This document shows positions 16,685 to 37,446 of a DNA stretch of 64,000 nucleotides, piece by piece. A program made the translations under genes and the position numbers. Origin of the DNA: Candidatus Bathyarchaeota archaeon (GTDB taxonomy: Archaea > Thermoproteota > Bathyarchaeia > 40CM-2-53-6 > RBG-13-38-9); the NCBI GenBank assembly GCA_963807605.1, contig CAWECG010000003.1, positions 768,001 through 832,000 on the forward strand. Direction: 5' to 3'. Every line of letters starts with the position of its first letter. Position 1 is the first letter of the stretch. Below the pieces are notes generated by a model. The model was not told the DNA's origin. It did not search any database and worked only from the letters and a program-made list of their open reading frames with translations.

Positions 16685-16778
16685 AGCCCGGTAGTGTAGC
16701 GGACAAAGGATCGTTTCCGTCTAGGCATAGCGGGCTTTGGACCCGTTGACGGGAGTTCGAATCTCCCCCGGGCTACCA
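16685..16778 (+). tRNA. tRNA-Gln(TTG) with 18-nt D-loop intron and encoded CCA
   Basis: A1-U72 acceptor AGCCCGG/CCGGGCT, anticodon arm GCGGG-CTTTGGA-CCCGT, T-arm GGGAG-TTCGAAT-CTCCC; intron 16707-16724 in a BHB motif. Confidence 0.92.
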
Positions 16779-24368: not shown

Positions 24369-24436
24369 CACACACAATAGCCGATTATCCAATTACGTTA
24401 CCATTGATAGAACACAAACGGTTCTTACCTTATTCC

Positions 24437-25105
24437 TCACAGAAATGTGAGTAGCTCAGGTAGATCATGAATTCGTACCGTCGCCACCTTCGCCAGTTCT
24501 TCATCACTATTGACGGCCACAGCCAATCCGGCGTTCTTCAAGAATCTGACATCGTACCTGCTGTCCCCTACGCACACACAATCGCTCTTGCTTATGTGCA
24601 TATCATCGAGTACATGATCGAGCGCTTCGTCCTTGCGGTTGAGGTCAACCCTAAAGATCCCGTTTCCGGTCAGAAATCCATCTCTGTCGGTTTGAAGTCC
24701 GTTAGCCACAGCAACATCGACTCCAAGCAGCGAGGCAACCTGATCAGTAAGAAGATCCAGCCCCGCGGAGATGATGACGACTTTGTATCCCCTCTGTTTT
24801 ATTTGTTGGACAACTTCCTTGGCATGAGGCGTCAGGGTGAAACTCGACAATATCGCCTTGATTTGTGAGATATGGAGCCTTCTGGGCCAGAGAGAGATAT
24901 CACGACGCATGAACTCTTCGTAGTCGATCCGTGCCTGTATATATGAAGCTAGGTTCGGAGCAGCCTTCTCTACGGTTCCAAAGTGGCCATGAATCCTCAA
25001 TCAACTACTTTTCTCGTTTACTAGAGTTCCATCCAAGTCAAAAGTAACAAGGCGGAACTTAATGGATGTATGGCCGGTGTCGTGTCTATTTGTGAAGCTC
25101 CTCAT
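24437..25105 (-). pseudogene. HAD-IB phosphoserine-phosphatase-like protein with in-frame TGA
   Basis: ATG at 25105, FDLDGTL motif I, then SS*L (TGA at 25001-25003, where homologues usually have Trp), ISAG, VGDSRYD. Confidence 0.85.
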
Positions 25106-26195
25106 CATTCGCCGACCGGTTGTAATCCTTTTTCCGTGCGTTCGAGTTTGATCGTCCAGTAAGGTGCGAACCCCTCAAATTCATCAGATGTCGCTCGTAC
25201 TTTGATAGTCAGGCCCTTTGAGTCGAATTCATACACCGAATAGCAATTTTTCCCTATTATTCCGAGATCCTCTCTAACGACACCACTGCTCCCAGTTCCA
25301 TGAACTGCAAGAGATTGAGATGATTGATATTCGTTGTTCTTCGGAGGTCGAGAGATACAAGATACGAACGGTTGATGACGATGACCATGCGAGACTATGT
25401 CGACATTCAATTGCAGTGCCTTGTACATCAGCTGTCCCGCGTCCAAAGTCAGATCATAATTCCGGCTCAGTGTCGTTATTTCTTCTACTGGTGTGGCTGG
25501 GATAAGATGATGATGCATTGTCATGATTCTATACATTACACGTTGTCCGTCTACCTTCCAGTTGAGCGAGCTGGCGGCCTGTTCAAGTTGCTCTAGACCC
25601 ACAAACCCGTAGCCTGCGAATTGCCGGTCTTCTAGCCGGGTTGAGTTTAGCCCCAGCACATCAACTGTAACGTAATTGCTAAGTAAGTATCGGCGCCCCA
25701 ATGTGAGATGCTGGTTCGGAGGCAATCCGAACGCTGCCAAGAAGAAATCAACATAGTTCTTCTGCGCGACTTCGCTTGAGAATTGAACAGGCTTCTCTGG
25801 ATCGTACTTGTCATCTTCCTGCTCAGCCCATAGAATATCGTGATTACCAGGCACAACGATGAGATCATAATAAGGGTCCAGTTCAAAGATGGTCCTTAGC
25901 GTTGACGCGCGCGCGTGCCAATCGGATCCTCTGTGTCGGATACTTTGATGTCTTTCACTTTTGCTCTGTACGTCAGATGTTTCCCGCTATCCAGCAAGTA
26001 GACGACTAATGGCTCAGTCGTGCGAGCGGTTGTCGTGAAATCTGCAAACACGGCGCGCGGAATCTTTTCTTTGGGAAGTGCCCACCATCCCCACCAAACG
26101 TAACCGTGTTGAGTGATTAAATCTCGGTGCAGCTTTATTGTGAACCCTAGTTGGGTAGCAAGATCTCGGAATCTCAACACCATCGATGTCGGCAT
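25105..26195 (-). pseudogene. metallophosphoesterase with N-terminal WWGWW domain, internally deleted
   Basis: 5' part (GYVWWGWW) ends at (CG)5 at 25906-25915; another frame resumes with DLIVVPGNHD, HHH, HGHRH; the DxH and GD motifs are missing. Confidence 0.7.
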
Positions 26196-26324
26196 TAATC
26201 CTTACCTGTTTAGAGCGAGTAATGACCTGCTGTCAGCCATCTAGCGCGCGCTAGGGTTAGAGATGTCTTTTCCATATGGCTATTGGTGCCACATTTCAAA
26301 TAAGCATTGTCAGCACACGTCAAC

Positions 26325-27212
26325 CTAGCTACGCACGCATACTTTCTGCCGCCATACTAACCCGCACACAAATCGGGGGCAGTACAGATTTTTCCGGTAT
26401 CGATCGTACTTCATACGCTTCCCACAGTTAGGGCAGTTGAAGAAGCCCTCCCAACCGCAGGTCAAACCATCCTGGCAGGAGAAAACCCCAGATTTGGTAT
26501 AGATCAGCTTGCTTCCGCAGTCTGGGCATTCATATTGGGGTGGGTGGTCTTCCATCCACCGTTTGGCTTGTGGTTTTCCCGATTGTATATTCTCGTAGGC
26601 CAACCAGCCGTCAACTTTCTGAATAATGTCCTCCCCCAAAGTTGGGAAGGCGTAATTCGGATAATGCTCCACATTGTATTCCCTGCGGTCTTTGTAGTCG
26701 TCAGCGGTCAATTCTTTGTGCATGAATTCCTCAAAAGTCAATCCAAGTCGTTGCAGGTGTTGCCTTATTTCGCCCAGTTTTTCAGGGGCTTCGGATAGAA
26801 CCTTCTCCACGAGCCCTAGCATTTTTGCTCGGTCATGCGACGCCTCATATTCTTCGAGTATTCGCTGGAATTTCCAGGCTTCACGTCGATGATGATCCCT
26901 TTCCAGCTCGGTTAGGTATTTCGCCTTTGCAAGCTCCTCTAGATTTGTTGCTGTTTTGACTTCAATCTTCAACTTTTCAAGCTCTTCGTCTGTGGGAGTC
27001 TGCGAGGCCTCTGCTTTGGATTCTTCTTCCTCAGCTTTCTTGAGCTTTTGAAATTGGCGGAATATCGTTGACTTTGGCGTGTCAAGCTTTTCTGCAAGAG
27101 ATCTCAACGAAGCGAGCCCTGCCTTCCATTCTAAGTAGGCCTTTCTCAACTTGTTCTCACCTGGTTGGAAATTTGCGTCATTGAGTCCCGTACTTCGTTC
27201 AAGGAGAGTCAT
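26325..27212 (-). CDS. HTH + coiled coil + double zinc-ribbon protein
   Basis: SLRSLAEKLDTPKSTIFRQF HTH; CPDC...C...C and CPNC...CP..C. Confidence 0.75.
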   Translation of the reverse strand: MTLLERSTGLNDANFQPGENKLRKAYLEWKAGLASLRSLAEKLDTPKSTIFRQFQKLKKAEEEESKAEASQTPTDEELEKLKIEVKTATNLEELAKAKYLTELERDHHRREAWKFQRILEEYEASHDRAKMLGLVEKVLSEAPEKLGEIRQHLQRLGLTFEEFMHKELTADDYKDRREYNVEHYPNYAFPTLGEDIIQKVDGWLAYENIQSGKPQAKRWMEDHPPQYECPDCGSKLIYTKSGVFSCQDGLTCGWEGFFNCPNCGKRMKYDRYRKNLYCPRFVCGLVWRQKVCVRS

Positions 27213-27612
27213 GTGATCACCGTTAATTCAAGACTATTTAGCTATTTCCAGTTCATTTATAAGGCTTTTTGAAGTAAAAATGAATAATAAAGAGTAATAT
27301 GTTGAAATAAATAAGAAATCATTGAAATAATCAACAATCATGAAAATAAGCACTTCTTAAATTAAGGAAAGATGAATTCCCAAAAAATAAACAGGGACAA
27401 CCCGTTCGTGCATACACTGACAACCGCATCCGTCTGTAGGCTGAGGGAGGGAGACAAAGATTATCGGGGCATGTTCGACTTTTGACGGAACGTGCGCAGC
27501 TATTCTTTCTTGGAAGTGGTTCCCCACAGAATTCAAAAGGACACACTGATTCCAGATTATCAGCACGAATCAAGGTTGCACATACACGTAGTGGAGCACT
27601 ATGACCCCCACT

Positions 27613-27768
27613 GGGACAACCGGGACAATGAGGACAATGGGACACTAGAATCTGATGGAAAATCGGAGTCTTATGTATTGAAAAGATTTTTTGAATCATC
27701 TAAAAAAGTACTTGGGACACGTGAAACATGTGGAACATGGCAGGACATGTCAAAACAGAATGGGACAT
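27613..27768. repeat. iteron-like 9-10 bp periodic GGGACA/GGAACA repeats
   Basis: gggacaacc-gggacaatg-aggacaatg-ggacac (27613-27645) and gggacacgt-gaaacatgt-ggaacatgg-caggacatgt...gggacat (27714-27768). Confidence 0.75.
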
Positions 27769-27813
27769 AAGGCGGCTTAATCAGAGAAAGAAGCCAGGAA
27801 CGTCAAGGTAATA

Positions 27814-28176
27814 GTGTTGCTCTTGGCTGACGAAACACAAAACAGAACGTACTCGAAAGGCCAGCTAAACAAGATTATCGACTCAGTCGTGCATCCCCTT
27901 TTCAAAAAAGATGCCAAATTCATCATAGTTGACAGCGCTCTCCACGCACTTGTCGAACAAAATCCCACCCTCTCGATAAGTAAATTCCTCAAATACAACC
28001 TCCAAGAGATTGTCCAACAAACAGTTGGAAAAGACAAACTCAGAAAAAAGAGAGTTGACAGCCTCATAAGACAGTTAAGGAAATTGTCTAGAGAATACCA
28101 GAGCATCCCAAGAAGACGCGTGCGTTCTGGCGGCAAAGCATCAAATGCCGCGCGCGGGTCGACAACCTCGACGTAA
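27814..28176 (+). pseudogene. hypothetical protein fragment
   Basis: Upstream in-frame ATG cut off by a TAA (MGHKAA*SEKEARNVKVIV); the tail runs into GC-alternating tracts. Confidence 0.45.
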
Positions 28177-28317
28177 CTTTTTTTAAGATGCCACCAAAAC
28201 GAACATAACTGTGTTTAGACGATGAATAATCGGACTGTGGCAGGGTCTCTCCTACTAGTCGGCAGCGCCCAATACATCATTAGTATGATTGTGGCGGAGT
28301 CTGTATACCGCGCGCGC

Positions 28318-28410
28318 TTCTCATTTTTCCAGTTTTGTTGCCCTTCTTGAATTTGCGTTCAGGATGTTCAATGTAGTCTTCAACCATCTTATCCAGTGTA
28401 TTCCAGTATT
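28318..28410 (-). pseudogene. short remnant resembling the C-terminal region of casposon family B DNA polymerase
   Basis: Translates QYWNTLDKMVEDYIEHPERKFKKGNKTGKMR, resembling the YW..L....Y..HPE.K...G..G..RRH pattern I recall from casposon PolBs. Confidence 0.5.
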
Positions 28411-28419
28411 GTGTGTGTG

Positions 28420-28433
28420 CTTTAGCTGGTGAG
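28420..28433. repeat. target-site repeat copy 2, shared by elements A and B
   Basis: CTTTAGCTGGTGAG between (TG)n and (CGA)4. Confidence 0.92.
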
Positions 28434-29894
28434 CGACGACGACGAAACATTAATTCTGTGAGGGAATACCGGGTAGCACTGTGAAACGATTTCGAGTATT
28501 CTGTCGACTATGCGACAAACATCCGGAATAACATCGGGCAGGCTGCGTGGAGAGCCTCTTGGAATCCTGTGAAGTCTATGAAGTGGATTACCGCAGAGCG
28601 CAAATTCCGCATCACGCAATCCGCCCCAATGTCCATGAGAAAAAGTTGACATCCAAGAATAGAAGCAGTCGTACACATCTTTGGCACCGGCCTCTATACT
28701 GATCTTTCTGAGGTCTGCGTTCGCCCAGTGACCCAGTTCAATGGGCAAGAATTCTTGCCAGATGTCTTCGTTGGCGAGTGCTCGAAGCGTATCCGTATTT
28801 ACATAGCTCGATTTCTCGTTCAGGTGGTTCAGTTTTAGGTAGGATAACTTCACTTGGCCAGCGCCAAAGATCCTATATGATTTCCAGAGGTCATCCGTGT
28901 CTTTCACTGCTAGATACTTCAAAGTGATGTAACACTCCACAATAGTTCTAAGAATAATGCGCCCAGAAATGGAGTGGCTCAGGTGATTTCTGCACAGTTC
29001 CACGACTAAGCTGAGACAATAAAGCGCGATACCGAAAGTGGTGTCGTGGCGTGGATCTAATGCCGTTGTCGTTCTAGATTTGTTGCAGTGTTCCAAAAGG
29101 AGATCGTAAAGTTCCTTCACACGACTATCGGTACCCTCAAGGCTGTGCTCACTCGCTTGGACTTCTGGGATAGAATAGCAAGGAGTGTCACGCAGACATT
29201 GCTGCCAGAACGTGGCAGGCCATCTTCTGATCGTTTTATCAACTTGCCTGAAGGTTATTTCCATTGAGCGAATCGTCGGTTTGACTTTTCGCTGGTCTCC
29301 ACGGTCAGGGTAAAATAGGATTTCTTCTGCTATCTCTCTGTGTTCAGAAGAAAATTTTATTTTCCTAGAGACCATCATGCACAGCACTCTCACCCATCGG
29401 CAGTCCGTCGATTCTTGCGATTGATGATTGAGTATACTTGCCACAGCAAGCATTAGCGCCTCCCAATCTGTGCTCGAAGGAGAATCCTTGATCTTACTTG
29501 CCCATTCTCTTCTAGAGGGAATGTCCAACAGAAGAAGAGGCCTGAGTATGCGTCTATGTTCGTCGACTTCGACAAGAATATCTAGAATTTCATCGAGAAC
29601 AGGTGGTCTTAGATTCGAAAGACCAGTGTGTGTTATGTCGTCAGGGCGATCATTCCCCTGAAACTCAGCTACATATTTCACTATTTTTCGCAATACTGTC
29701 AAAGCATCTGGGCGAGGAAGATGTGAGAGCAAAAGTGACGTCCAAATGAACTCAGGTAGAAAGTCATCGATCCATGACATTGGCTGCAAATTCGGAATAG
29801 TTGCAAGCGACGGAATTAGGGTACCCTTGCTTAGCTTGTGCTGATCAATTGTTGAGTGATCATTCTTTGAAAGTGGTGTGCCTTGATTGGTCAA
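28422..29894 (-). CDS. DUF5677-like protein (cargo)
   Basis: 490 aa; IILRTIVE.YI, Y...S.FSHG.W helical C-terminal motifs; its stop lies in the target repeat. Confidence 0.65.
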   Translation of the reverse strand: MTNQGTPLSKNDHSTIDQHKLSKGTLIPSLATIPNLQPMSWIDDFLPEFIWTSLLLSHLPRPDALTVLRKIVKYVAEFQGNDRPDDITHTGLSNLRPPVLDEILDILVEVDEHRRILRPLLLLDIPSRREWASKIKDSPSSTDWEALMLAVASILNHQSQESTDCRWVRVLCMMVSRKIKFSSEHREIAEEILFYPDRGDQRKVKPTIRSMEITFRQVDKTIRRWPATFWQQCLRDTPCYSIPEVQASEHSLEGTDSRVKELYDLLLEHCNKSRTTTALDPRHDTTFGIALYCLSLVVELCRNHLSHSISGRIILRTIVECYITLKYLAVKDTDDLWKSYRIFGAGQVKLSYLKLNHLNEKSSYVNTDTLRALANEDIWQEFLPIELGHWANADLRKISIEAGAKDVYDCFYSWMSTFSHGHWGGLRDAEFALCGNPLHRLHRIPRGSPRSLPDVIPDVCRIVDRILEIVSQCYPVFPHRINVSSSSLTS

Positions 29895-30039
29895 AGTTAT
29901 TCTTCCTCAAGCTTATGCTAATCACAAGGTGAACTAATCACATACTCTCGCTGATCAAGTTGAAGTCTCCACATCTGTAACACTTTGGAGGTTGTTTTAC
30001 ACGAACACGCCCGCGAGTAGGGACGCCAATAGCTCCTTC

Positions 30040-31182
30040 CTAATGGTAGTCCGTTGGGTCTCCGGGGATCCAGTTTTCAAGAGGTTCCTTCAGAATAGTT
30101 GGCAATTGAGCATCATTGAAACATCTGTCTATCTGGTACATGTTCCTTTGCAGGTCACTCCCAAGTTTCGCCTTGATTGAAGTCGCAACCGGATCAACCA
30201 GAAATATCTTCAGCGCGAGATTTTCCTTGACCGCATTATAAAACACGTTGTTTACCGCTTCGTCTCTAAAGGAATAACCAATGACGATGCACACCGGGGT
30301 TCTCTTCAATTTCTCTTGAAACAAATGAAATAGTTCAAAGAAAGGATCTTGATAGATATATTTCGTTTGAATTGGATAGATCAACAATTCTCCGCGAATG
30401 TTATCTCCGTAGAGTGTTTTCTCTTGCCTCGCTGGCAGCAAGATAATTTCCCCTTTGTCAGTTATCCACTGGTCTATTGAACCGTGAAGCTTGTGAAGGC
30501 GAATGCGTTCGTCTCCGGCGAATCCTTCGTGTTGATGGAGATTCTTGATGTTGAAAATCATTTTGGTCTTGGTTGGATCCGCGTCGAATCCGTTTGTCAT
30601 TGGTATCATTTTCTTGTTACAGTATAGTTCTATGCAGAGGTCATAGTTAGTGGTGATTATGTCGACCGGAAGGTAAGTGGTTGCCGTGCCCGAAAGTCTG
30701 GCTGATATTATGTTGGTAATCCGTTCAGGAGATCTCGAAGCCTTAACTCTGAGAATGTTCAGCGCCTCAAAAAGTGAATCGTAGGTTTTAGTCATCTTGT
30801 CGATCTGTTCCTCTTTCAATCGAGAGGTCTCGTAGATGTAGTTCTTGATGGCTTGAATCGTATTCTCAAGATCTGGACGTTTAGGCAGTTGATCAATGGC
30901 ACTATATTGGGATAAGTACCATGGGAAGGGCCCAGAATCTCGAACGGCCTCTTTGGGGCTCATATAGCTGGTTAGAACGGTCAAGACCGATTCCAGATCG
31001 GGTGTAAAACCGAATTCTCTAATCTTCTTTTGAATTGACTCGATATCGTATTTGTTGATAGAGGGTATCTGCTTGATCTCATCGGTCATTTCCTGTAAAG
31101 TAGGAATGTCGAAACTCCTTGAGGCTCCTGCACCAAGAAAGACAATCACAAGAACCAACCCCCGCAAGCTACTAAGGCGCAC
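30040..31182 (-). CDS. SIR2-like (SIR2_2) protein, putative NADase
   Basis: FLGAGAS, TTNYD, KLHGSI, IGYSFRD. Confidence 0.9.
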   Translation of the reverse strand: MRLSSLRGLVLVIVFLGAGASRSFDIPTLQEMTDEIKQIPSINKYDIESIQKKIREFGFTPDLESVLTVLTSYMSPKEAVRDSGPFPWYLSQYSAIDQLPKRPDLENTIQAIKNYIYETSRLKEEQIDKMTKTYDSLFEALNILRVKASRSPERITNIISARLSGTATTYLPVDIITTNYDLCIELYCNKKMIPMTNGFDADPTKTKMIFNIKNLHQHEGFAGDERIRLHKLHGSIDQWITDKGEIILLPARQEKTLYGDNIRGELLIYPIQTKYIYQDPFFELFHLFQEKLKRTPVCIVIGYSFRDEAVNNVFYNAVKENLALKIFLVDPVATSIKAKLGSDLQRNMYQIDRCFNDAQLPTILKEPLENWIPGDPTDYH

Positions 31183-31183
31183 G

Positions 31184-32353
31184 CTAACTAGGAATAGTTT
31201 CCTCTGGGTAGTTTAGTCTGAAGAAATCCCTTACAATTTGGTCTTTGAGCTTGTAGTTTCCTTCCATTTTGAATATCAAATCGAACTCGATGAGTTTAGT
31301 CAAGTATCGAATCAGCCACTCCGGCCTTAGGCCCGTTTCTTTAGCAATTTTTGAAACGCTCATTTCTTCTTTTGAGAGAGCTCTTAGTATTCTCGCATAG
31401 TTCGTTTCTGTGACTTTAGAACCTAGATCATCGCTTAAAATATAGTTAACATACAAATAGAGGCCTCCAGTAACATTAGTCAACAGTCGCTCATATCTTT
31501 CTGCAACAGCCTCTCCCGGTCTTCTCGCTTCTGCCATTACAAGAAGGTAGAAAGGGTGCCCTCCTACAAGTCTGTAGACTTCTTCAGCTTCATTACGATC
31601 TACTTCTAGAGCTGCATTCAAGTAGAGCTCCCTAGCGTCTTTTTCCTCAAGAGGCCCAACCTCAATCAAGTTGAATCTGCCAAATAATGGTGAACCACCT
31701 TCACCAAATATACTCTTTAACATATGGACTCTGGAACCACTTAAGATGATGGAGACTCCTGCCAACTCATCTATGATTGATCTGAACTGATCCATCACAT
31801 TTTTCATACCGTCAAATCTAGTCCATTCAATGATTTTCTGAGCTTCATCCAAGATTATGACGACTCTTGTCCCTGAGACAGTGGCCAAATGGGAAGCGTA
31901 AGAAAAGGCTTTTCCAAAAGATTCAGTAAATCTTGGTTTTTCGTTCGCAAAAGCAGGTCTAATTGTCCAAACAGGTTTTCCGACATCATCTAGAGTGAGA
32001 TCGAACTCCACACGCAACCTTCTCAATTTCTTGATTTCTTTGATTGCATCACCTACCTGACTAATGATTTGTGATTTTACGTCAAGTGTTTTTTTATAGG
32101 ATTCGGTGAGCGAGTCGATGATGGCTTGGTTAAATTCACTAGGATCATAGCCATATTTTGAGAAATCTAGTCTCGTGACAATGACATTCTGGTCAGCTAA
32201 GCGTTTCTCCAGTTCCTTTAGGATAGCGGTTTTGCCAATTCTTCTTGGGCCTATTAGGGCATAATGCATTTTCGCGCCCAGTTTCGTCAGCCCTTCAAGA
32301 AGTTTTGTCAGTATTTCCTCTCGGTCAACTATGTTATCGAACATATATGTCAT
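31184..32353 (-). CDS. archaeal AAA/STAND-like ATPase with C-terminal winged helix
   Basis: VDREE, GPRRIGKT, IILDEAQ, LSGS, SPLFGR, GGHPFYL; HTH at SVSKIAKETGL. Confidence 0.88.
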   Translation of the reverse strand: MTYMFDNIVDREEILTKLLEGLTKLGAKMHYALIGPRRIGKTAILKELEKRLADQNVIVTRLDFSKYGYDPSEFNQAIIDSLTESYKKTLDVKSQIISQVGDAIKEIKKLRRLRVEFDLTLDDVGKPVWTIRPAFANEKPRFTESFGKAFSYASHLATVSGTRVVIILDEAQKIIEWTRFDGMKNVMDQFRSIIDELAGVSIILSGSRVHMLKSIFGEGGSPLFGRFNLIEVGPLEEKDARELYLNAALEVDRNEAEEVYRLVGGHPFYLLVMAEARRPGEAVAERYERLLTNVTGGLYLYVNYILSDDLGSKVTETNYARILRALSKEEMSVSKIAKETGLRPEWLIRYLTKLIEFDLIFKMEGNYKLKDQIVRDFFRLNYPEETIPS

Positions 32354-32470
32354 CTAACATATATGTTGAATTACATATAAGTTTCCCTGTCAACAATTGT
32401 TTCGCCAAGCTTACGAAGGCATGTTTTCCAACACATATGTCGTATAACATATATGCGATATAACATATGT
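32341..32470. repeat. palindromic ACAT(AT)ATGT repeat cluster over the ATPase start and upstream region
   Basis: Copies at 32341, 32357, 32373 (partial), 32433, 32447, 32463. Confidence 0.8.
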
Positions 32471-32827
32471 GCTAGTCGTCACCCATGACGTGTGCAATAC
32501 CTATGCCAATAACCTCGATTCTCTTCTATTGTCCTGTTTTAACCCCGTTACACTTCACTATTCCTGCTTAGACTACAAAAAAGGTGATTTTGTCTCCATA
32601 ATACTGCCGCAGATCTCGGATACAATTTCCAATACGGGAGAAATGTCCTGATTTTGCTTGATTCCATCAGAAACAACCTCATTCTACTAGCTATTTCTCT
32701 GATTCAATTAGCTTTTTGATATATCCCTCCTATGGTATTCTATGATTATGCTATGATTTAGTTTCAGAGATAACATGTCATAATCAGGCCAGAAGTGGAC
32801 ACCTCTATGTCTCCATTTCTCCTACAA

Positions 32828-33655
32828 TTATGGAGCATCTTGGACTCTAGTGGATTCTATCGGATTGAATCTGGAGTTCAAGTACTTGGATAAGTCAAGG
32901 AATTCATCAAACTCTTCCCGCGTGACATCAGTCTTTTCCTTCATTAGCGCCAAGGCCTTGAGAAACGTCTTAGCATTCAAGAAGAACCTGAAGCCGTAAA
33001 ATTTCATAGAGTCACCGATCTTGATGCTGATAGGAACCAGATCCTTCGCGATGTCTTTCGGAAGAATGACATCAACTGGTTGAGTTGGAAATTCTAAGTC
33101 AATCTTGTCTCCAACAGCGCTCTTGTCTTCCAGAAGAGAATCGTATATCCTGCAAACCGCAGATATGGGATAGCTATAGCTGAAGAGGAACATTCTGCTT
33201 AGGAAACCCATCTTAGCCCAATCGTGTCTGCCATCCTCCAGAGCATCTTCAGTAATCGCGGTCAATAGTCCGCAGTTCACTTCTTTGTCCCAGACATTAG
33301 CGTACGTTGTGATTTTTGCGACTCCTTCCTCAATGAGGTTATTCAGAAAAGCTATCAAAGACTGTCTTGTCTTCGCGCTTTTGCTGAGTGGAGTGATCAA
33401 GTCTGCTATTATGATGTGTTTGACCTCTCCTGACACTACCTTCGGCAGGACATCACGTGTTAGACCGAAAGCTGTACAATCGGTGTAGTAGACGATTCCC
33501 TTGTTCTCCTTGTACTTCTTCAGGACGGCTGTCTTTCCGCTTTCAGGTTTAGCGACAATAAGAAGCGAGAGAGGCTTCTCATCTTTCAAATATGCACTGT
33601 AGAGAGTAGCTCTTACTGTCTTTTCCAGTGCATCTAATTCTATAATTCTTGGCAA
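32828..33655 (-). CDS. AAA+ ATPase, putative replicative helicase
   Basis: Walker A AKPESGKT, Walker B IIIAD, LNNLIEEG, Arg-finger-like GFLSR. Confidence 0.75.
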   Translation of the reverse strand: MPRIIELDALEKTVRATLYSAYLKDEKPLSLLIVAKPESGKTAVLKKYKENKGIVYYTDCTAFGLTRDVLPKVVSGEVKHIIIADLITPLSKSAKTRQSLIAFLNNLIEEGVAKITTYANVWDKEVNCGLLTAITEDALEDGRHDWAKMGFLSRMFLFSYSYPISAVCRIYDSLLEDKSAVGDKIDLEFPTQPVDVILPKDIAKDLVPISIKIGDSMKFYGFRFFLNAKTFLKALALMKEKTDVTREEFDEFLDLSKYLNSRFNPIESTRVQDAP

Positions 33656-33687
33656 TATTCCTCAACCATTTTCTGTCTCGCCGAGCT

Positions 33688-34161
33688 TCATACTCGTACT
33701 CTCGTTCCAGCTCGCGATCTTCCTCTATGTTCACTGTCCTTATGCTCATGCTGAAGTCTCCTTGCGAGTGATCTTGTGTTCTGGATGGTTGACTGAGAAG
33801 ATGCACTGCCTCGATAGATAGTCCGCAATCTCTTGTTAGGAGATTCGAAGAGCTTGTTCCATTCCTTGAATCCAACTCGTATTCGCGCGCGATTGAAATC
33901 TACTCTTCGACAATCATCACCTAAAAGGAACTGTAATCGATTCGCAAGCTCCGATTTCATCGCAGGGATTATTTTGATGTAGAAGTGGTTGCCTTTGCAT
34001 CGACTTGGACACATTCTTATTTGGACAACTTTGACCCCATGATTCCTGCAAATATTGACCACTGACCGGACATAGTCGCTTATCCATTCATGGTCTACGA
34101 CACAGTCCTTATCGACCTTTAATTCATCGACGAGTCCTGCGTCTGTACCTTTTCTTGACAT
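33688..34161 (-). CDS. small archaeo-eukaryotic primase (AEP)-like protein
   Basis: LKVDKD (DxD), SRCKGNHFYI (SxxxGxH), LGDD in AEP motif order. Confidence 0.55.
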   Translation of the reverse strand: MSRKGTDAGLVDELKVDKDCVVDHEWISDYVRSVVNICRNHGVKVVQIRMCPSRCKGNHFYIKIIPAMKSELANRLQFLLGDDCRRVDFNRARIRVGFKEWNKLFESPNKRLRTIYRGSASSQSTIQNTRSLARRLQHEHKDSEHRGRSRAGTRVRV

Positions 34162-34495
34162 AACTAATCACTCTTGATGGTAGTCGGTGGGCCTTCCACC
34201 TCCGACCTTTGCGCTCCATCCTTAACGCTTCAATAGTCAGATGCCGTTGCGTCTTGGTTGCTGGTCTCTCACGCTCGAATGAAATCCTAATGTATTTTTT
34301 CGGAATCCAACGTCTATGCTTCCGATACAAATGTCGTTGAAAATATTGAAGCCCTCTTCTCGCAAGACTTCTCCTTACTCTTCTGATGTCACCTTTTCTC
34401 GTTGCCGTAATGTACATTTCCTGTTCCTGTGGTATCTTCTGATGCTCTTCATACCACATTGTAGAAACCGTCATTTTGTAGATTCTAGCCGACAT
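34124..34495 (-). CDS. very basic Arg/Lys-rich protein
   Basis: 123 aa, overlaps both neighbours in the same operon. Confidence 0.65.
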   Translation of the reverse strand: MSARIYKMTVSTMWYEEHQKIPQEQEMYITATRKGDIRRVRRSLARRGLQYFQRHLYRKHRRWIPKKYIRISFERERPATKTQRHLTIEALRMERKGRRWKAHRLPSRVISYVKKRYRRRTRR

Positions 34496-34751
34496 TGGAC
34501 ATCCTCTTTTCTTGGTAGCCCGATCCCTTGACTGAGCGGACCTTGTTGGGAGAATTTATCCAGAAAATCCAGCTTTTTGAAGACTTGACTGCCTGAATTC
34601 TACCTTCGTATAGGAGTTCTAGGCAATGTTTCAGGGCGGTGTTCCAGTTGCCAATCCTACACGCCACCCTAATCTTCTCTACATCCAATGGTTGCTGAGT
34701 TTCAGCGAGTTGCTTAAGAATGGAAGTCTTGTAATCGAAACTTTTCTTCAT
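34485..34751 (-). CDS. small winged-helix protein
   Basis: ILKQL...PLDVEKIR..CRIGNWNTALKHCLELL.EGRI...SKSWIFW; ATG at 34751. Confidence 0.7.
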   Translation of the reverse strand: MKKSFDYKTSILKQLAETQQPLDVEKIRVACRIGNWNTALKHCLELLYEGRIQAVKSSKSWIFWINSPNKVRSVKGSGYQEKRMSNVG

Positions 34752-34823
34752 TCGAATCGCCTTACAGAAGATCTTACATGAATTGTTATATAGAGGCGTA
34801 CACATGCAATTATCCGAAGATGC

Positions 34824-35498
34824 GTGGGTATGGACAAGTATGAGGCGCTTGCAGAGAAACTCAACCGTGTAAGAACAGGAATTCTGCTAAATGGTCCAAT
34901 CACTGTGTATGGTATCGAGAGATACTTAGACCTTCCAAATGCGACGGCTAAGAGATATTTCAAAACCCTGCTAAGAGAGAAAGAGATTATTCAATACAGG
35001 ACAGAACCGCACAAAAGTGGAAATATCAAGATACTCTATGGGCCGACCCTCTACGGTTATTTAAGATGGTTCAGAATCCCGAAGAGCATTGCCAAGAAGA
35101 ATTTTGGGGCAGCAATGAAAATTTGGCTTCCAGAAGACAAATTCGAATTCTTTCTACCCAAGAACGAATTACAAGAGGCGCTGAAGAATAGCCAAGTTGT
35201 AGTTCATTTATCGAGATTCTGTCAGATGATCGCAGATGTACTCCCTGACGCAGAAGACTTCTCAAGTTACCTAGAAGACCAAGGCTACAGCGAATCCAAT
35301 CCCTCACAGATAATCAGTCTAGCTATGCAATTTGTAGGCAGAAGCCATGCTAAAGAATGGACTGCAAGTTCAAAAGTTCTCGTCAAATATTTGCCGACCT
35401 ACCAGCAGCAGCTACAGCAATTCATTCGGAATCAGCGAGAACGACTTGATCGCATGGAAAAAGAGATCTTTGGGCATGAGGGAGGAAGTCAAGAATGA
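34824..35498 (+). CDS. HTH regulator upstream of cas1
   Basis: GPITVYGIERYLDLPNATAKRYFKTLL; ATGA overlap with cas1. Confidence 0.75.
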   Translation: MGMDKYEALAEKLNRVRTGILLNGPITVYGIERYLDLPNATAKRYFKTLLREKEIIQYRTEPHKSGNIKILYGPTLYGYLRWFRIPKSIAKKNFGAAMKIWLPEDKFEFFLPKNELQEALKNSQVVVHLSRFCQMIADVLPDAEDFSSYLEDQGYSESNPSQIISLAMQFVGRSHAKEWTASSKVLVKYLPTYQQQLQQFIRNQRERLDRMEKEIFGHEGGSQE

Positions 35499-36703
35499 AT
35501 CCTCTTCATCTTTCTGGTTACGGCGTCAAGGTCAAGGTCGATAATATGCGTCCTAAGTCAGAGCTTGTGATATCTGATGGCAGACAGGACTTCAAGGAAG
35601 GCTCAGCCTATCGCTTTAGGCCAAGAAAGATTCCTTATGACTCCATCATCATTGACGGTCACAGCGGCTACATCTCTCTTCAAGCCTTCCACTGGCTATC
35701 CAAGAACAAGATTCCAGTCTTCATCCTCAACTTCGATGGTAGCTTGATTTCGTCTATTCTTCCTCCTATGCCTGTTAAGGCTGACTTGAGAGCTGCACAA
35801 TTAGACGCCTCAAGAGATGCTGAGAAGACATTCAAGATTGCATATGAACTGGTGAAGGCTAAGATTCAGAGAACCCATGATGTCTTGAAGTGGCTTGCAG
35901 ATAGATACGACATAGAAAAGCAAGCGAGGAAAGTCAAAAAAGAATCCTTGACTCTCTCAAAGGCAAGTACAATCAAAGACCTGAGAATTGTCGAAGGCAG
36001 AGTAGCTCTAAGATATTGGCAAACTATCCAGTCAGTTATTCCTGAGACCTTTGATTTTCAAGGCAGAATCACCAAGAAACATCAGTACAATGCTTCAGAC
36101 CCTGTTAATCTGGCGCTGAACTATGCTTATGGAGTATTGGAGGGCGAATGCCGTAGAGCAATAAACATCGTAGGCTTAGAGCCTTCAGTCGGCTTTTTGC
36201 CTGATTTCGCTGATTACCAGACCAAACAATCATTGGTCTACGACTTGCAGGAACCCTTCAGATGGATTGGTGAAATAGCTACAATACAGGCCTTCGAGTC
36301 GGGTCTACTGGATATGAAAGATTTCTATTTCATGGGCGACGATTACCGCTATCACCTTGAGATAGAAGCTAAGAGAAGATTCCTACGATTTCTCAAAGAA
36401 CGATTCAACTCAGCAATTAGGTACAAAGGCAAGGTATGGCAGTGGGATACTGTTATCCTGAATAAGGTTCAAGAGTTAAGCAGATTCTTTCTTGGGAGAT
36501 CCAAGTTCGTAGACTTCATAGAACCTGCTCCAAGTCTGGTAAGAAGCGATAGTTTGGAATTTCGCAATCGAATTCTAGAGCTGACACAGAAACAGGCTCA
36601 AGGACTTGGCATGAGTAAGAGTACTCTTCATCATCTGCGTAAGAATATTAGTAGTGATAAATCGTTTAGAGTATATCAGAAGGTTGCCTGTAGGCTGAAG
36701 TAA
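35495..36703 (+). CDS. cas1: casposase-type solo Cas1 with C-terminal HTH
   Basis: MNPLHLSGYG start, IPYDSIIIDGHSG.IS, VEGRVA..YW, ASDPVNLALNYAYG.LE, SLVYDLQEPFR, HTH QAQGLGMSKSTLHHL; no cas2 or CRISPR array. Confidence 0.92.
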   Translation: MNPLHLSGYGVKVKVDNMRPKSELVISDGRQDFKEGSAYRFRPRKIPYDSIIIDGHSGYISLQAFHWLSKNKIPVFILNFDGSLISSILPPMPVKADLRAAQLDASRDAEKTFKIAYELVKAKIQRTHDVLKWLADRYDIEKQARKVKKESLTLSKASTIKDLRIVEGRVALRYWQTIQSVIPETFDFQGRITKKHQYNASDPVNLALNYAYGVLEGECRRAINIVGLEPSVGFLPDFADYQTKQSLVYDLQEPFRWIGEIATIQAFESGLLDMKDFYFMGDDYRYHLEIEAKRRFLRFLKERFNSAIRYKGKVWQWDTVILNKVQELSRFFLGRSKFVDFIEPAPSLVRSDSLEFRNRILELTQKQAQGLGMSKSTLHHLRKNISSDKSFRVYQKVACRLK

Positions 36704-37396
36704 ATGGCTGAGAAGAAGCATTCTAGACGTAGATTTCTGAAGTATGTAGGAGCGGGGATTGTTGCAGCAACTGCTGGAATATGCTACCTAACTAAGGACT
36801 ATTGGTATTCTCGCATACAGGAAGCCTACAAAGAATTCTATACAAGAATGTTTCCAGAAAGGAGTTCGACTACCACCACAACAGCTTCCACCACAACAGA
36901 AACTCAAACTCCCAGTATTATCCAATCACCATCGGCCACTGTAACTCCAACACCAACACCAAAGGAACAGATGTCCGAAGACGAAATAATGATAAGAGGA
37001 GTCCTGGCTGCGTGGAGAGATCTCTACAATCCTGGAAAAACGGGTAATACTCTCGGGGTCTATACGGACGATGCCGTCTTGGATTTTGGCTGCAGTAGTG
37101 ATAGAGTCGGGAGCTTTACCGGGTCGGCTGAAATATCAGCGTTCATCAGTGGACGTGTGGCTGAAGATGATTGCAAAATGGCGAATCAGATAATAGAAAC
37201 GTTGAGAATACAGGACAATGAGGCATATGTCGTATGCTATGAGGATTTGATGACTAGCAGAGGAACCGCTAGATGGCTCAGCAAATTCAAGCTGAGAAAG
37301 ATCAGCGAAATCAGGCGTGGAGCCAGCACATTCAAACTCCCAAAACCACTTTGGAAAATACAGGATGAGTATTCTCACTGTGCGCAAGACGGCTGA
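36704..37396 (+). CDS. Tat-signal protein with Thr-rich linker and NTF2/SnoaL-like domain
   Basis: SRRRFLK twin-arginine motif, poly-Thr/Pro, IRGVLAAWRD, YTDDAVL, LWKI. Confidence 0.8.
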   Translation: MAEKKHSRRRFLKYVGAGIVAATAGICYLTKDYWYSRIQEAYKEFYTRMFPERSSTTTTTASTTTETQTPSIIQSPSATVTPTPTPKEQMSEDEIMIRGVLAAWRDLYNPGKTGNTLGVYTDDAVLDFGCSSDRVGSFTGSAEISAFISGRVAEDDCKMANQIIETLRIQDNEAYVVCYEDLMTSRGTARWLSKFKLRKISEIRRGASTFKLPKPLWKIQDEYSHCAQDG

Positions 37397-37413
37397 AATC
37401 GTCGTCGTCGTCG

Positions 37414-37427
37414 CTTTAGCTGGTGAG
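37414..37427. repeat. target-site repeat copy 3 (proximal to putative leader)
   Basis: CTTTAGCTGGTGAG immediately after (TCG)5. Confidence 0.92.
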
Positions 37428-37446
37428 AGCATCCAGATTTGAACCG
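37421..37446 (-). other. tRNA 3'-end-like motif forming the putative casposase target
   Basis: Minus strand CGG-TTCAAAT-CTGGA-TGCTCTC-A-CCA: T-loop, exactly 12 nt, discriminator, CCA; no recognisable 5' half. Confidence 0.6.

Follow-up and report, generated by a model that had tools for sequence, protein, structure and literature searches.

A Cas1-integrated element of Bathyarchaeia belongs to a casposon family that lacks a DNA polymerase of family B and carries a probable small primase-polymerase-like module

Casposons are defined by the joint presence of Cas1 and a family B DNA polymerase (PolB), and they have been proposed as the ancestors of CRISPR adaptation. A stretch of 64,000 nucleotides from a Candidatus Bathyarchaeota archaeon (contig CAWECG010000003.1, positions 768,001 to 832,000; referred to here as the window, in whose numbering positions without a prefix are given) contains a Cas1-encoding element of about 9 kb (28434-37413) that the initial annotation had described as fully bounded and devoid of a PolB gene. 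This locus raises the question of whether an ordinary casposon has lost its polymerase or whether a separate type of element exists, and of how the ends of such an element would be made. The analysis reported below establishes a real, undescribed family of PolB-less casposons; we found no published description of such a family in the literature that was searched, which mostly did not extend to subscription journals.

The borders of the element are sharply defined. It is flanked by a perfect 14-bp direct repeat (CTTTAGCTGGTGAG; 28420-28433 and 37414-37427), each copy of which touches an inward-facing (CGA)n tip: (CGA)4 on the plus strand at the left (28434-28445), and (CGA)5 on the minus strand at the right (37399-37413). 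The terminal inverted repeat, perfect over 12 bp (28434-28445 and 37402-37413), consists of microsatellite only and comprises the whole left tip; internal to it, the two ends match at 7 of 35 positions and share no sequence. The exact 14-mer is present in three of the approximately 129 copies of the target core in the genome, which corresponds to a chance match of about 1.6% at a given second site, and both tips are, in addition, of the same type and the same inward orientation. On its minus strand, the right flank resembles the 3' end of a tRNA (leader at 37428-37445), with the motif TCAAATC placed exactly 8 bp before the duplication, an offset found in 45 of the 59 target-type sites of this genome. 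The same TCAAATC geometry has been mapped for, and is required by, the casposase of Aciduliprofundum boonei, whose duplications measure 14-15 bp and to which the distal half of the site is immaterial (PMC6614799). The landing site in the window is a mimic situated just inside the tip of an older element, and a short open reading frame (ORF) spans the empty site in translation; we rejected a real tRNA or other RNA gene as the target, none being found at the site. Two relatives (L042, L106) adjoin true tRNA-type ends. Neither empty-site nor circle joints were seen in one DNA sequencing run in which the organism had a small share.

Between these borders, the ORFs and the divergent operon layout given in the initial annotation were recovered. 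A minus-strand operon encodes a probable winged-helix regulator (34485-34805), a basic protein of 123 amino acids (34124-34495; 39 Lys and Arg versus 9 Asp and Glu), a small protein that we term mini-AEP (33688-34161) after the superfamily of archaeo-eukaryotic primases (AEPs), and a P-loop ATPase (32828-33655). Divergently transcribed on the plus strand are the gene for a probable helix-turn-helix (HTH) protein (34824-35498), whose slot is occupied by several unrelated families in relatives, and the cas1 gene coupled to it (35495-36703). The winged-helix label rests on the sequence pattern and on one weak Pfam match to a homolog (E 0.05), and this family occurs in 12 loci only. Family 2 casposons have two conserved HTH genes, one of them with HEAT repeats; two HTH-like ORFs fill these slots here, with no significant family match. 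The longest open frame of the element has 491 codons and no frame contains a PolB motif; the element ORFs gave no Pfam match to HNH, the HNH-slot protein of the casposon L178 had no tblastn match in the genome, and neither Cas2 among the element ORFs nor a CRISPR array was found.

The Cas1 protein (Pfam Cas1, E 2.7e-49) is a family-2-like casposase with a C-terminal HTH. Its best match in the PDB is the Methanosarcina mazei casposase (6OPM; 246 bits versus 92 for the next Cas1), and the alignment (E 5.7e-72) covers residues 4-397 and runs through the C-terminal HTH domain. E167 and E253 of the active site are intact, but Pro236 (codon at 36200) replaces the histidine that aligns with H232 of the M. 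mazei triad (E162, H232, E247). This histidine is kept in 36 other casposases of related loci (six were unscored); H236P recurs in L192, whose sequence agrees and which is probably the source sample itself. Because the active-site histidine is replaced by proline, the casposase of the window is probably dead and the element frozen in place. It is the sole full-length cas1 product of the assembly; seven other matches are fragments. Another assembly holds a sister copy of the left arm (90% identity over 2.76 kb) at a different target, a sign of past mobility. The initial annotation had overlooked both H236P and the loss of a stop codon at the left tip that is described below.

Is the absence of PolB a property of this copy or of a lineage? 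We found 204 homologs of the mini-AEP, which is encoded in 16 of the 401 genomes searched in the class; the named relatives are Bathyarchaeia. Linkage was counted in 36 loci from Bathyarchaeia genomes and metagenomes with sufficiently long flanks. The basic protein accompanies the mini-AEP in 36 of 36 of these loci and a divergent cas1 in 35, while the ATPase family is present in 25, with another family in its place in 10 of the remaining 11. This linkage holds across the clade while the cargo turns over completely. The module-bearing casposases form one clade in the Cas1 tree (support 98/93), which is midpoint-rooted only. Five further elements (8.6-15.6 kb; four with (CA)n and one with (CGA)n tips) are fully bounded by identical duplications, two of them at true tRNA ends. 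Short microsatellite tips of the 12-bp type are the sole inverted repeat in five of the six bounded members, the exception being L096 (85-9148), whose inverted repeat is perfect over at least 45 bp and could stem from copying of the ends or from an effect of assembly close to the edge of the contig.

Since Pfam can miss the PolB type of the casposon L178, we checked the absence of PolB also with the L178 enzyme as a query and with a PolB motif scan. This 866-residue casposon PolB (L178:4875-7475), called from three clear motifs, is missed by Pfam, PHROG, and PDB sequence searches. No PolB motif was found in the six bounded elements, and no casposon-type polB lies beside any module-bearing cas1 in flanks of up to 10 kb; the only PolB within that distance, in L088, is a cellular polymerase that shares 58% identity with that of the host. 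The host genome (94% complete) encodes two cellular PolBs, both far from the element, and gave no match to PF03175. The PolB casposons L085 and L178, which have GGGGATA ends, fall outside the module clade; in them, the corresponding divergent slot is taken by an HTH/(HNH)/PolB block. Consequently, the close relatives lack PolB, a simple deletion does not account for the element, and the proposal of a distinct PolB-less class of Cas1-integrated elements holds. The element is a member of a Bathyarchaeia-centred casposon family in which the PolB/HNH block is replaced by the mini-AEP, its basic partner, and usually an ATPase. Replacement of one block by the other is the simplest reading, its direction depending on the midpoint root.

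Other Cas1 lineages were met alongside this clade. A second PolB-less lineage (L082:8078-15236 of genome G272; also L083 and L084) forms the sister clade in the tree; L082 is 7.1 kb long, has an identical 14-bp duplication and tips of (CCG)n, where the inverted repeat is longer and imperfect, and no mini-AEP was detected in it. L174 (4786-9164), whose tips are (CA)n, is a deeply diverged member with a Cas1 of 44% identity and a distant mini-AEP (E 7.6e-7). L081 and L088 have Cas1 without the module.

The mini-AEP has a catalytic core of about 120 residues, followed by an unconserved tail. D17, D19, G57, H59, G81, and D82 are invariant among 116 homologs, and these contain the AEP motifs I (DxD), II (His), and III (Asp) in order, with one conserved histidine only. 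The structure model is confident over residues 10-120. AEPs are the top structural matches in three libraries, all below significance: the best PDB folds are LigD PolDom (E 2e-3) and HP0184 (Z 6.2, root-mean-square deviation 3.3, 99 residues aligned), followed by the PrimPols of African swine fever virus (Z 5.3) and S-2L (Z 4.9), and in the Atlas the TM-scores to AEPs are 0.43-0.48, with the AEP-like PF24387 as the nearest named cluster (score 0.90). The Pfam family AEP-TOTE weakly matches 10 of the 116 members. Profiles of the mini-AEP and of the ATPase had no significant match among PDB sequences, and a scan of IMG/VR with the mini-AEP alignment confirmed nothing. The AEP-like character that the initial annotation had assigned to this protein is thus borne out by the motifs and by the nearest folds, with fold scores that stay below significance; judged from its motifs and the concordant fold matches of the model, the protein is likely an AEP core. 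It has no accessory domain. A possible longer fused form is represented by one 374-residue match.

It is the basic protein encoded directly upstream, and not the ATPase, that constantly accompanies the mini-AEP. A complex of mini-AEP and basic protein was predicted with a score of 0.77, against 0.00 for the best control; all contacts (100%) agree between runs, and the partner has a pLDDT of at least 84. The mark used for this score was met by 58 of 80 solved and 2 of 110 mismatched pairs and, as we used our own alignments, is only roughly valid here. The predicted interface lies at residues 88-112 of the mini-AEP, outside the catalytic residues. T9 and Y15 are conserved in the basic protein, which, judged from these residues, its basic character, the position of its gene, and the predicted complex, is a candidate terminal or accessory protein. 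Its fold has no clear match (best Z 5.3; Atlas blank), which does not imply a new fold.

The ATPase is of AAA+ type and retains Walker A, one Walker B aspartate, and two arginines typical of AAA+ proteins (K41, D85, R154, and R223 are conserved), while the usual Walker B glutamate is missing. Family matches are weak (AAA_lid_8 in 9 of 32 members, best E 0.0035; MCM, E 0.03). No significant match to superfamily 3 (SF3) or other helicases was found, and the family is absent from 11 of the 36 loci, so it is a variable member of the module. A helicase role is unsupported; of the two alternatives suggested at the outset, primase-helicase-type replication finds no support and end synthesis gains indirect support.

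Part of this support comes from linear archaeal viruses. The strongest structural matches of the mini-AEP are AFV1 ORF144 (E 1e-6), a betalipothrixvirus protein, and HHIV-2 ORF30. These viral homologs are unannotated (HHIV-2 ORF30, L195:20755-21228; AFV1 ORF144, L194:4235-4669; SIFV0030, L197:3473-4270), and they retain all three AEP motifs. The gene for ORF30 is present in all four SH1-like viruses (SH1, PH1, HHIV-2, and HCIV-1), its SH1 counterpart being ORF41. For the SH1-like viruses, which lack a polymerase gene, terminal proteins have been demonstrated or proposed, and end patching of the Streptomyces type has been suggested (PMC3622292); we found no PolB in the SH1 group or in AFV1. The ends of the SH1-like genomes start with C and run into (CT)n, those of AFV1 are a C followed by a run of G, and in HCIV-1 a 19-bp microsatellite is the entire inverted repeat (PMC4958249). 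Short terminal reiteration is a signature of protein priming (PMC4974454). The viral mini-AEPs are candidates for the missing end-replication enzymes of these viruses. A match in the Streptomyces phage ZL12 is antisense to an annotated gene and was rejected as chance.

Further support comes from the tips found in this genome. Ends that are homologous to each other bear one repeat or the other, (CA)n or (CGA)n, and in some cases (CGA)n lies stacked upon (CA)n. Ends with (CGA)n mostly have unrelated interiors, whereas GGGGATA ends have about 80 bp in common. Inserts of 9-10 nt that consist of repeat only occur between inverted sites, and one (CA) tip begins in the middle of a gene, within a fragment of a casposon polB. 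Compared with the sister copy, the left tip of the window element lacks 8 bp that include a stop codon, and the left cargo gene (28422-29894) consequently reads through the repeat into the target duplication. Taken together, these signs favour tip renewal.

We lean, by a little more than an even chance, towards a mechanism in which the mini-AEP and its partner build or heal the tips of a linear copy whose body is copied by host polymerases, and the casposase integrates the product with a 14-bp duplication; the link between the module and end synthesis is inferred from the virus homologs and the simple-repeat tips. The mini-AEP, bound to the basic protein, would make or restore the terminal few bases of the linear free copy by reiterative priming, as protein-primed end patching or a close variant of it, and would thereby yield tips of (CA)n or (CGA)n, which are acceptable to the casposase. 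As inferred from characterised relatives, the casposase would then join the 3' ends into a tRNA-3'-end site, or a mimic of it. Tip synthesis could also cap new breakpoints and so give rise to the many non-autonomous cassettes of this genome; the Streptomyces Tap-Tpg system heals truncated telomeres (PMC5449611). Specifically protein-primed synthesis is a tentative refinement, which we would not presume. A wider proposal is likewise possible rather than probable: that an AEP of about 120 residues, with a protein partner as primer, adds microsatellite 'telomeres' to DNA ends, that any fragment so capped is licensed for Cas1 integration in these elements, and that SH1-like and filamentous archaeal viruses use this enzyme as the one missing from their known end replication.

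Several observations weigh against module-dependent tip synthesis. Each sign of renewal has a plain alternative (slippage, deletion, or nesting), and the 8-bp loss at the left tip is equally well a simple slippage deletion. L096 has a long inverted repeat, and the sister lineage represented by L082 has (CCG)n tips without a mini-AEP, so that repeat tips are possible without the enzyme in cis. The fold scores of the mini-AEP are weak (no PDB E-value below 0.001, no Z of 8 or above, TM-scores as given), and the complex model places no hydroxyl of the basic protein into the active site. We found nothing homologous to the basic protein next to the viral mini-AEPs, and no residue of the mini-AEP or the basic protein separates (CA) from (CGA) elements; two weak Cas1 columns only are related to the repeat type.

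Among the other explanations, template-directed priming without a terminal protein survives best, and we consider it unlikely but worth serious attention. Here, the mini-AEP would read GTG or GTC triplets in the tips and lay down inward primers, and two rounds of host polymerase would free a linear copy with defined ends; the basic protein would stand in for the missing helix-bundle/PriCT domain. The template strands of both tip types are indeed runs of GTG or GTC, the primase of pRN1 requires GTG in its template (PMC2034472), and a mini-AEP without an accessory domain, with the basic protein modelled away from the active site, would suit such a division of labour. However, the pRN1 primase starts outside its triplet, so that the tips would shrink with each round unless re-extended, and the terminal proteins of the SH1-like viruses that bear a mini-AEP would be left unexplained.

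The module might instead be a replicon derived from a virus or plasmid, or a passenger unrelated to the tips. Movement would then depend on Cas1 only, by cut-and-paste or host-repaired copy-out, and the tips would be inverted repeats that eroded and were expanded by slippage. The A. boonei casposase requires five terminal bases only (PMC6614799), the (CCG)n lineage as well as L081 and L088 have Cas1 without the module, and a cluster of palindromic repeats with 16-bp spacing (32315-32484) could be an origin. The near-complete linkage of the module to cas1 across a deep clade argues against this explanation, as does the co-occurrence of the mini-AEP with C-starting repeat tips in unrelated linear viruses; moreover, the palindromic repeats are not conserved in 14 relatives and, lying upstream of the cargo ATPase gene, are probably an operator. 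We regard this alternative as improbable.

It is very unlikely that the small protein is another palm-fold enzyme, for instance an HUH-type nuclease by which the element is peeled out: its weaker fold matches include IS200 TnpA and Rep domains, but it has a single conserved histidine, its invariant DxD, His, and Asp follow in the AEP order, and the AEP-TOTE and PF24387 matches point the same way. That the element is a deletion derivative of an ordinary PolB casposon which picked up unrelated genes can be given almost no credence, since the mutated Cas1 and the relics of ordinary casposons in this genome (12 GGGGATA-type ends and one 127-codon scrap of a casposon polB) stand against six bounded PolB-less elements that form part of one clade without a casposon-type polB beside any of its cas1 genes. 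The scrap itself (G000 C3:32977-33375, L183) starts directly behind a (CA)-type tip and is 80% identical to a copy in genome G087.

The remaining genes of the element are cargo. On the minus strand, the left cargo gene (28422-29894) encodes a DUF5677/DitA-like protein (Pfam E 1.8e-18; PADLOC DitA E 1.3e-75), with a 90%-identical sister copy in L189; to its right lie genes for a SIR2-like protein with a putative defence function (30040-31182; Pfam and PADLOC) and an archaeal ATPase with a C-terminal winged HTH (31184-32353; ATPase_2, E 3.9e-16). On the plus strand, cas1 is followed by the gene for a probable secreted protein (36704-37396), with a weak Tat signal and weak SnoaL-like matches (E 0.012 and 0.061).

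To the left, a (CA)n-tipped tandem neighbour (24369-28419) has the left duplication in common with the element, the sites differing by one base; it encodes a zinc-ribbon protein, a homolog of which adjoins the mini-AEP gene in L002. The roughly 129 copies of the 14-bp site lie in clusters (e.g., C1:351909-431852 and C3:31576-58359), and the flanks that adjoin them are (CA)n, (CGA)n, of GGGGATA type, or leader. Numerous units of 50-64 bp, made up of tip and leader, occur in these clusters, which suggests nested landing pads. A tRNA gene at 16685-16778 of the window, its anticodon undeciphered, probably contains an intron.

The PolB-less clade shows that the polymerase is replaceable in casposons and that Cas1 can act on near-generic tips of 9-15 nt, which brings it nearer to the capture of spacers. 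The way in which casposon ends arise in vivo is an open question (PMC6614799), as is the copying of the protein-capped ends of SH1-like viruses that have no polymerase gene (PMC3622292); with a module of just two proteins, each of about 120 residues, a single simple assay could address both. Engineering might also profit, by way of an intact relative, from an integrase whose only requirements are a short repeat tip and a tRNA-end site. If the wider proposal is true, telomere capping together with Cas1 would constitute a gene-capture system.

How does the element compare with known systems? It has a stand-alone Cas1 of the casposase group and a target-site duplication, as casposons do, and neither a PolB nor the inverted repeats of 25-602 nt that casposons have (PMC4046053). 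With family 2 casposons (AciBoo-C1 of A. boonei; M. mazei), it has in common the C-terminal HTH of Cas1, the 14-bp duplication, the tRNA-3'-end target in which TCAAATC lies 8 bp upstream, insertion in tandem, an HTH-cas1 pair that diverges from a replication block, and defence-type cargo. It differs from them in lacking PolB, HNH, and an intact E/H/E triad, and in having a 12-bp microsatellite inverted repeat and the mini-AEP module; its 3' ends finish in G, in contrast to the oligo-C used by A. boonei. The element acts like a family 2 casposon at integration, but because it has no PolB, no HNH, and no long repeat, we did not assign it to family 2. As in end-patched linear replicons, both termini carry a short reiteration. 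SH1, PH1, HHIV-2, HCIV-1, AFV1, and SIFV possess a homologous stand-alone mini-AEP, and the SH1 group and AFV1 also simple-repeat tips starting with C; unlike the element, the SH1 group, AFV1, and SIFV have virions, no integrase, and in most cases long inverted repeats. The pRN1 ORF904 protein, P4-type replicons, and the CRISPR-associated Prim-Pols (CAPPs) combine AEP-type motifs with a nearby ATPase or cas1; compared with the pRN1 and P4 primases, however, the mini-AEP has half the size and no fused accessory or SF3 helicase domain, and the CAPPs reside in CRISPR adaptation operons with cas2 and not in elements bounded by target duplications (PMC8211822). The Streptomyces Tap-Tpg system resembles the mechanism favoured here in that a primase-like enzyme and a partner would build or repair the last bases while the host polymerase copies the body. 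Its telomeres are palindromic and not microsatellite, and it has no integration step; the likeness lies in the proposed function, and we claim no sequence relationship.

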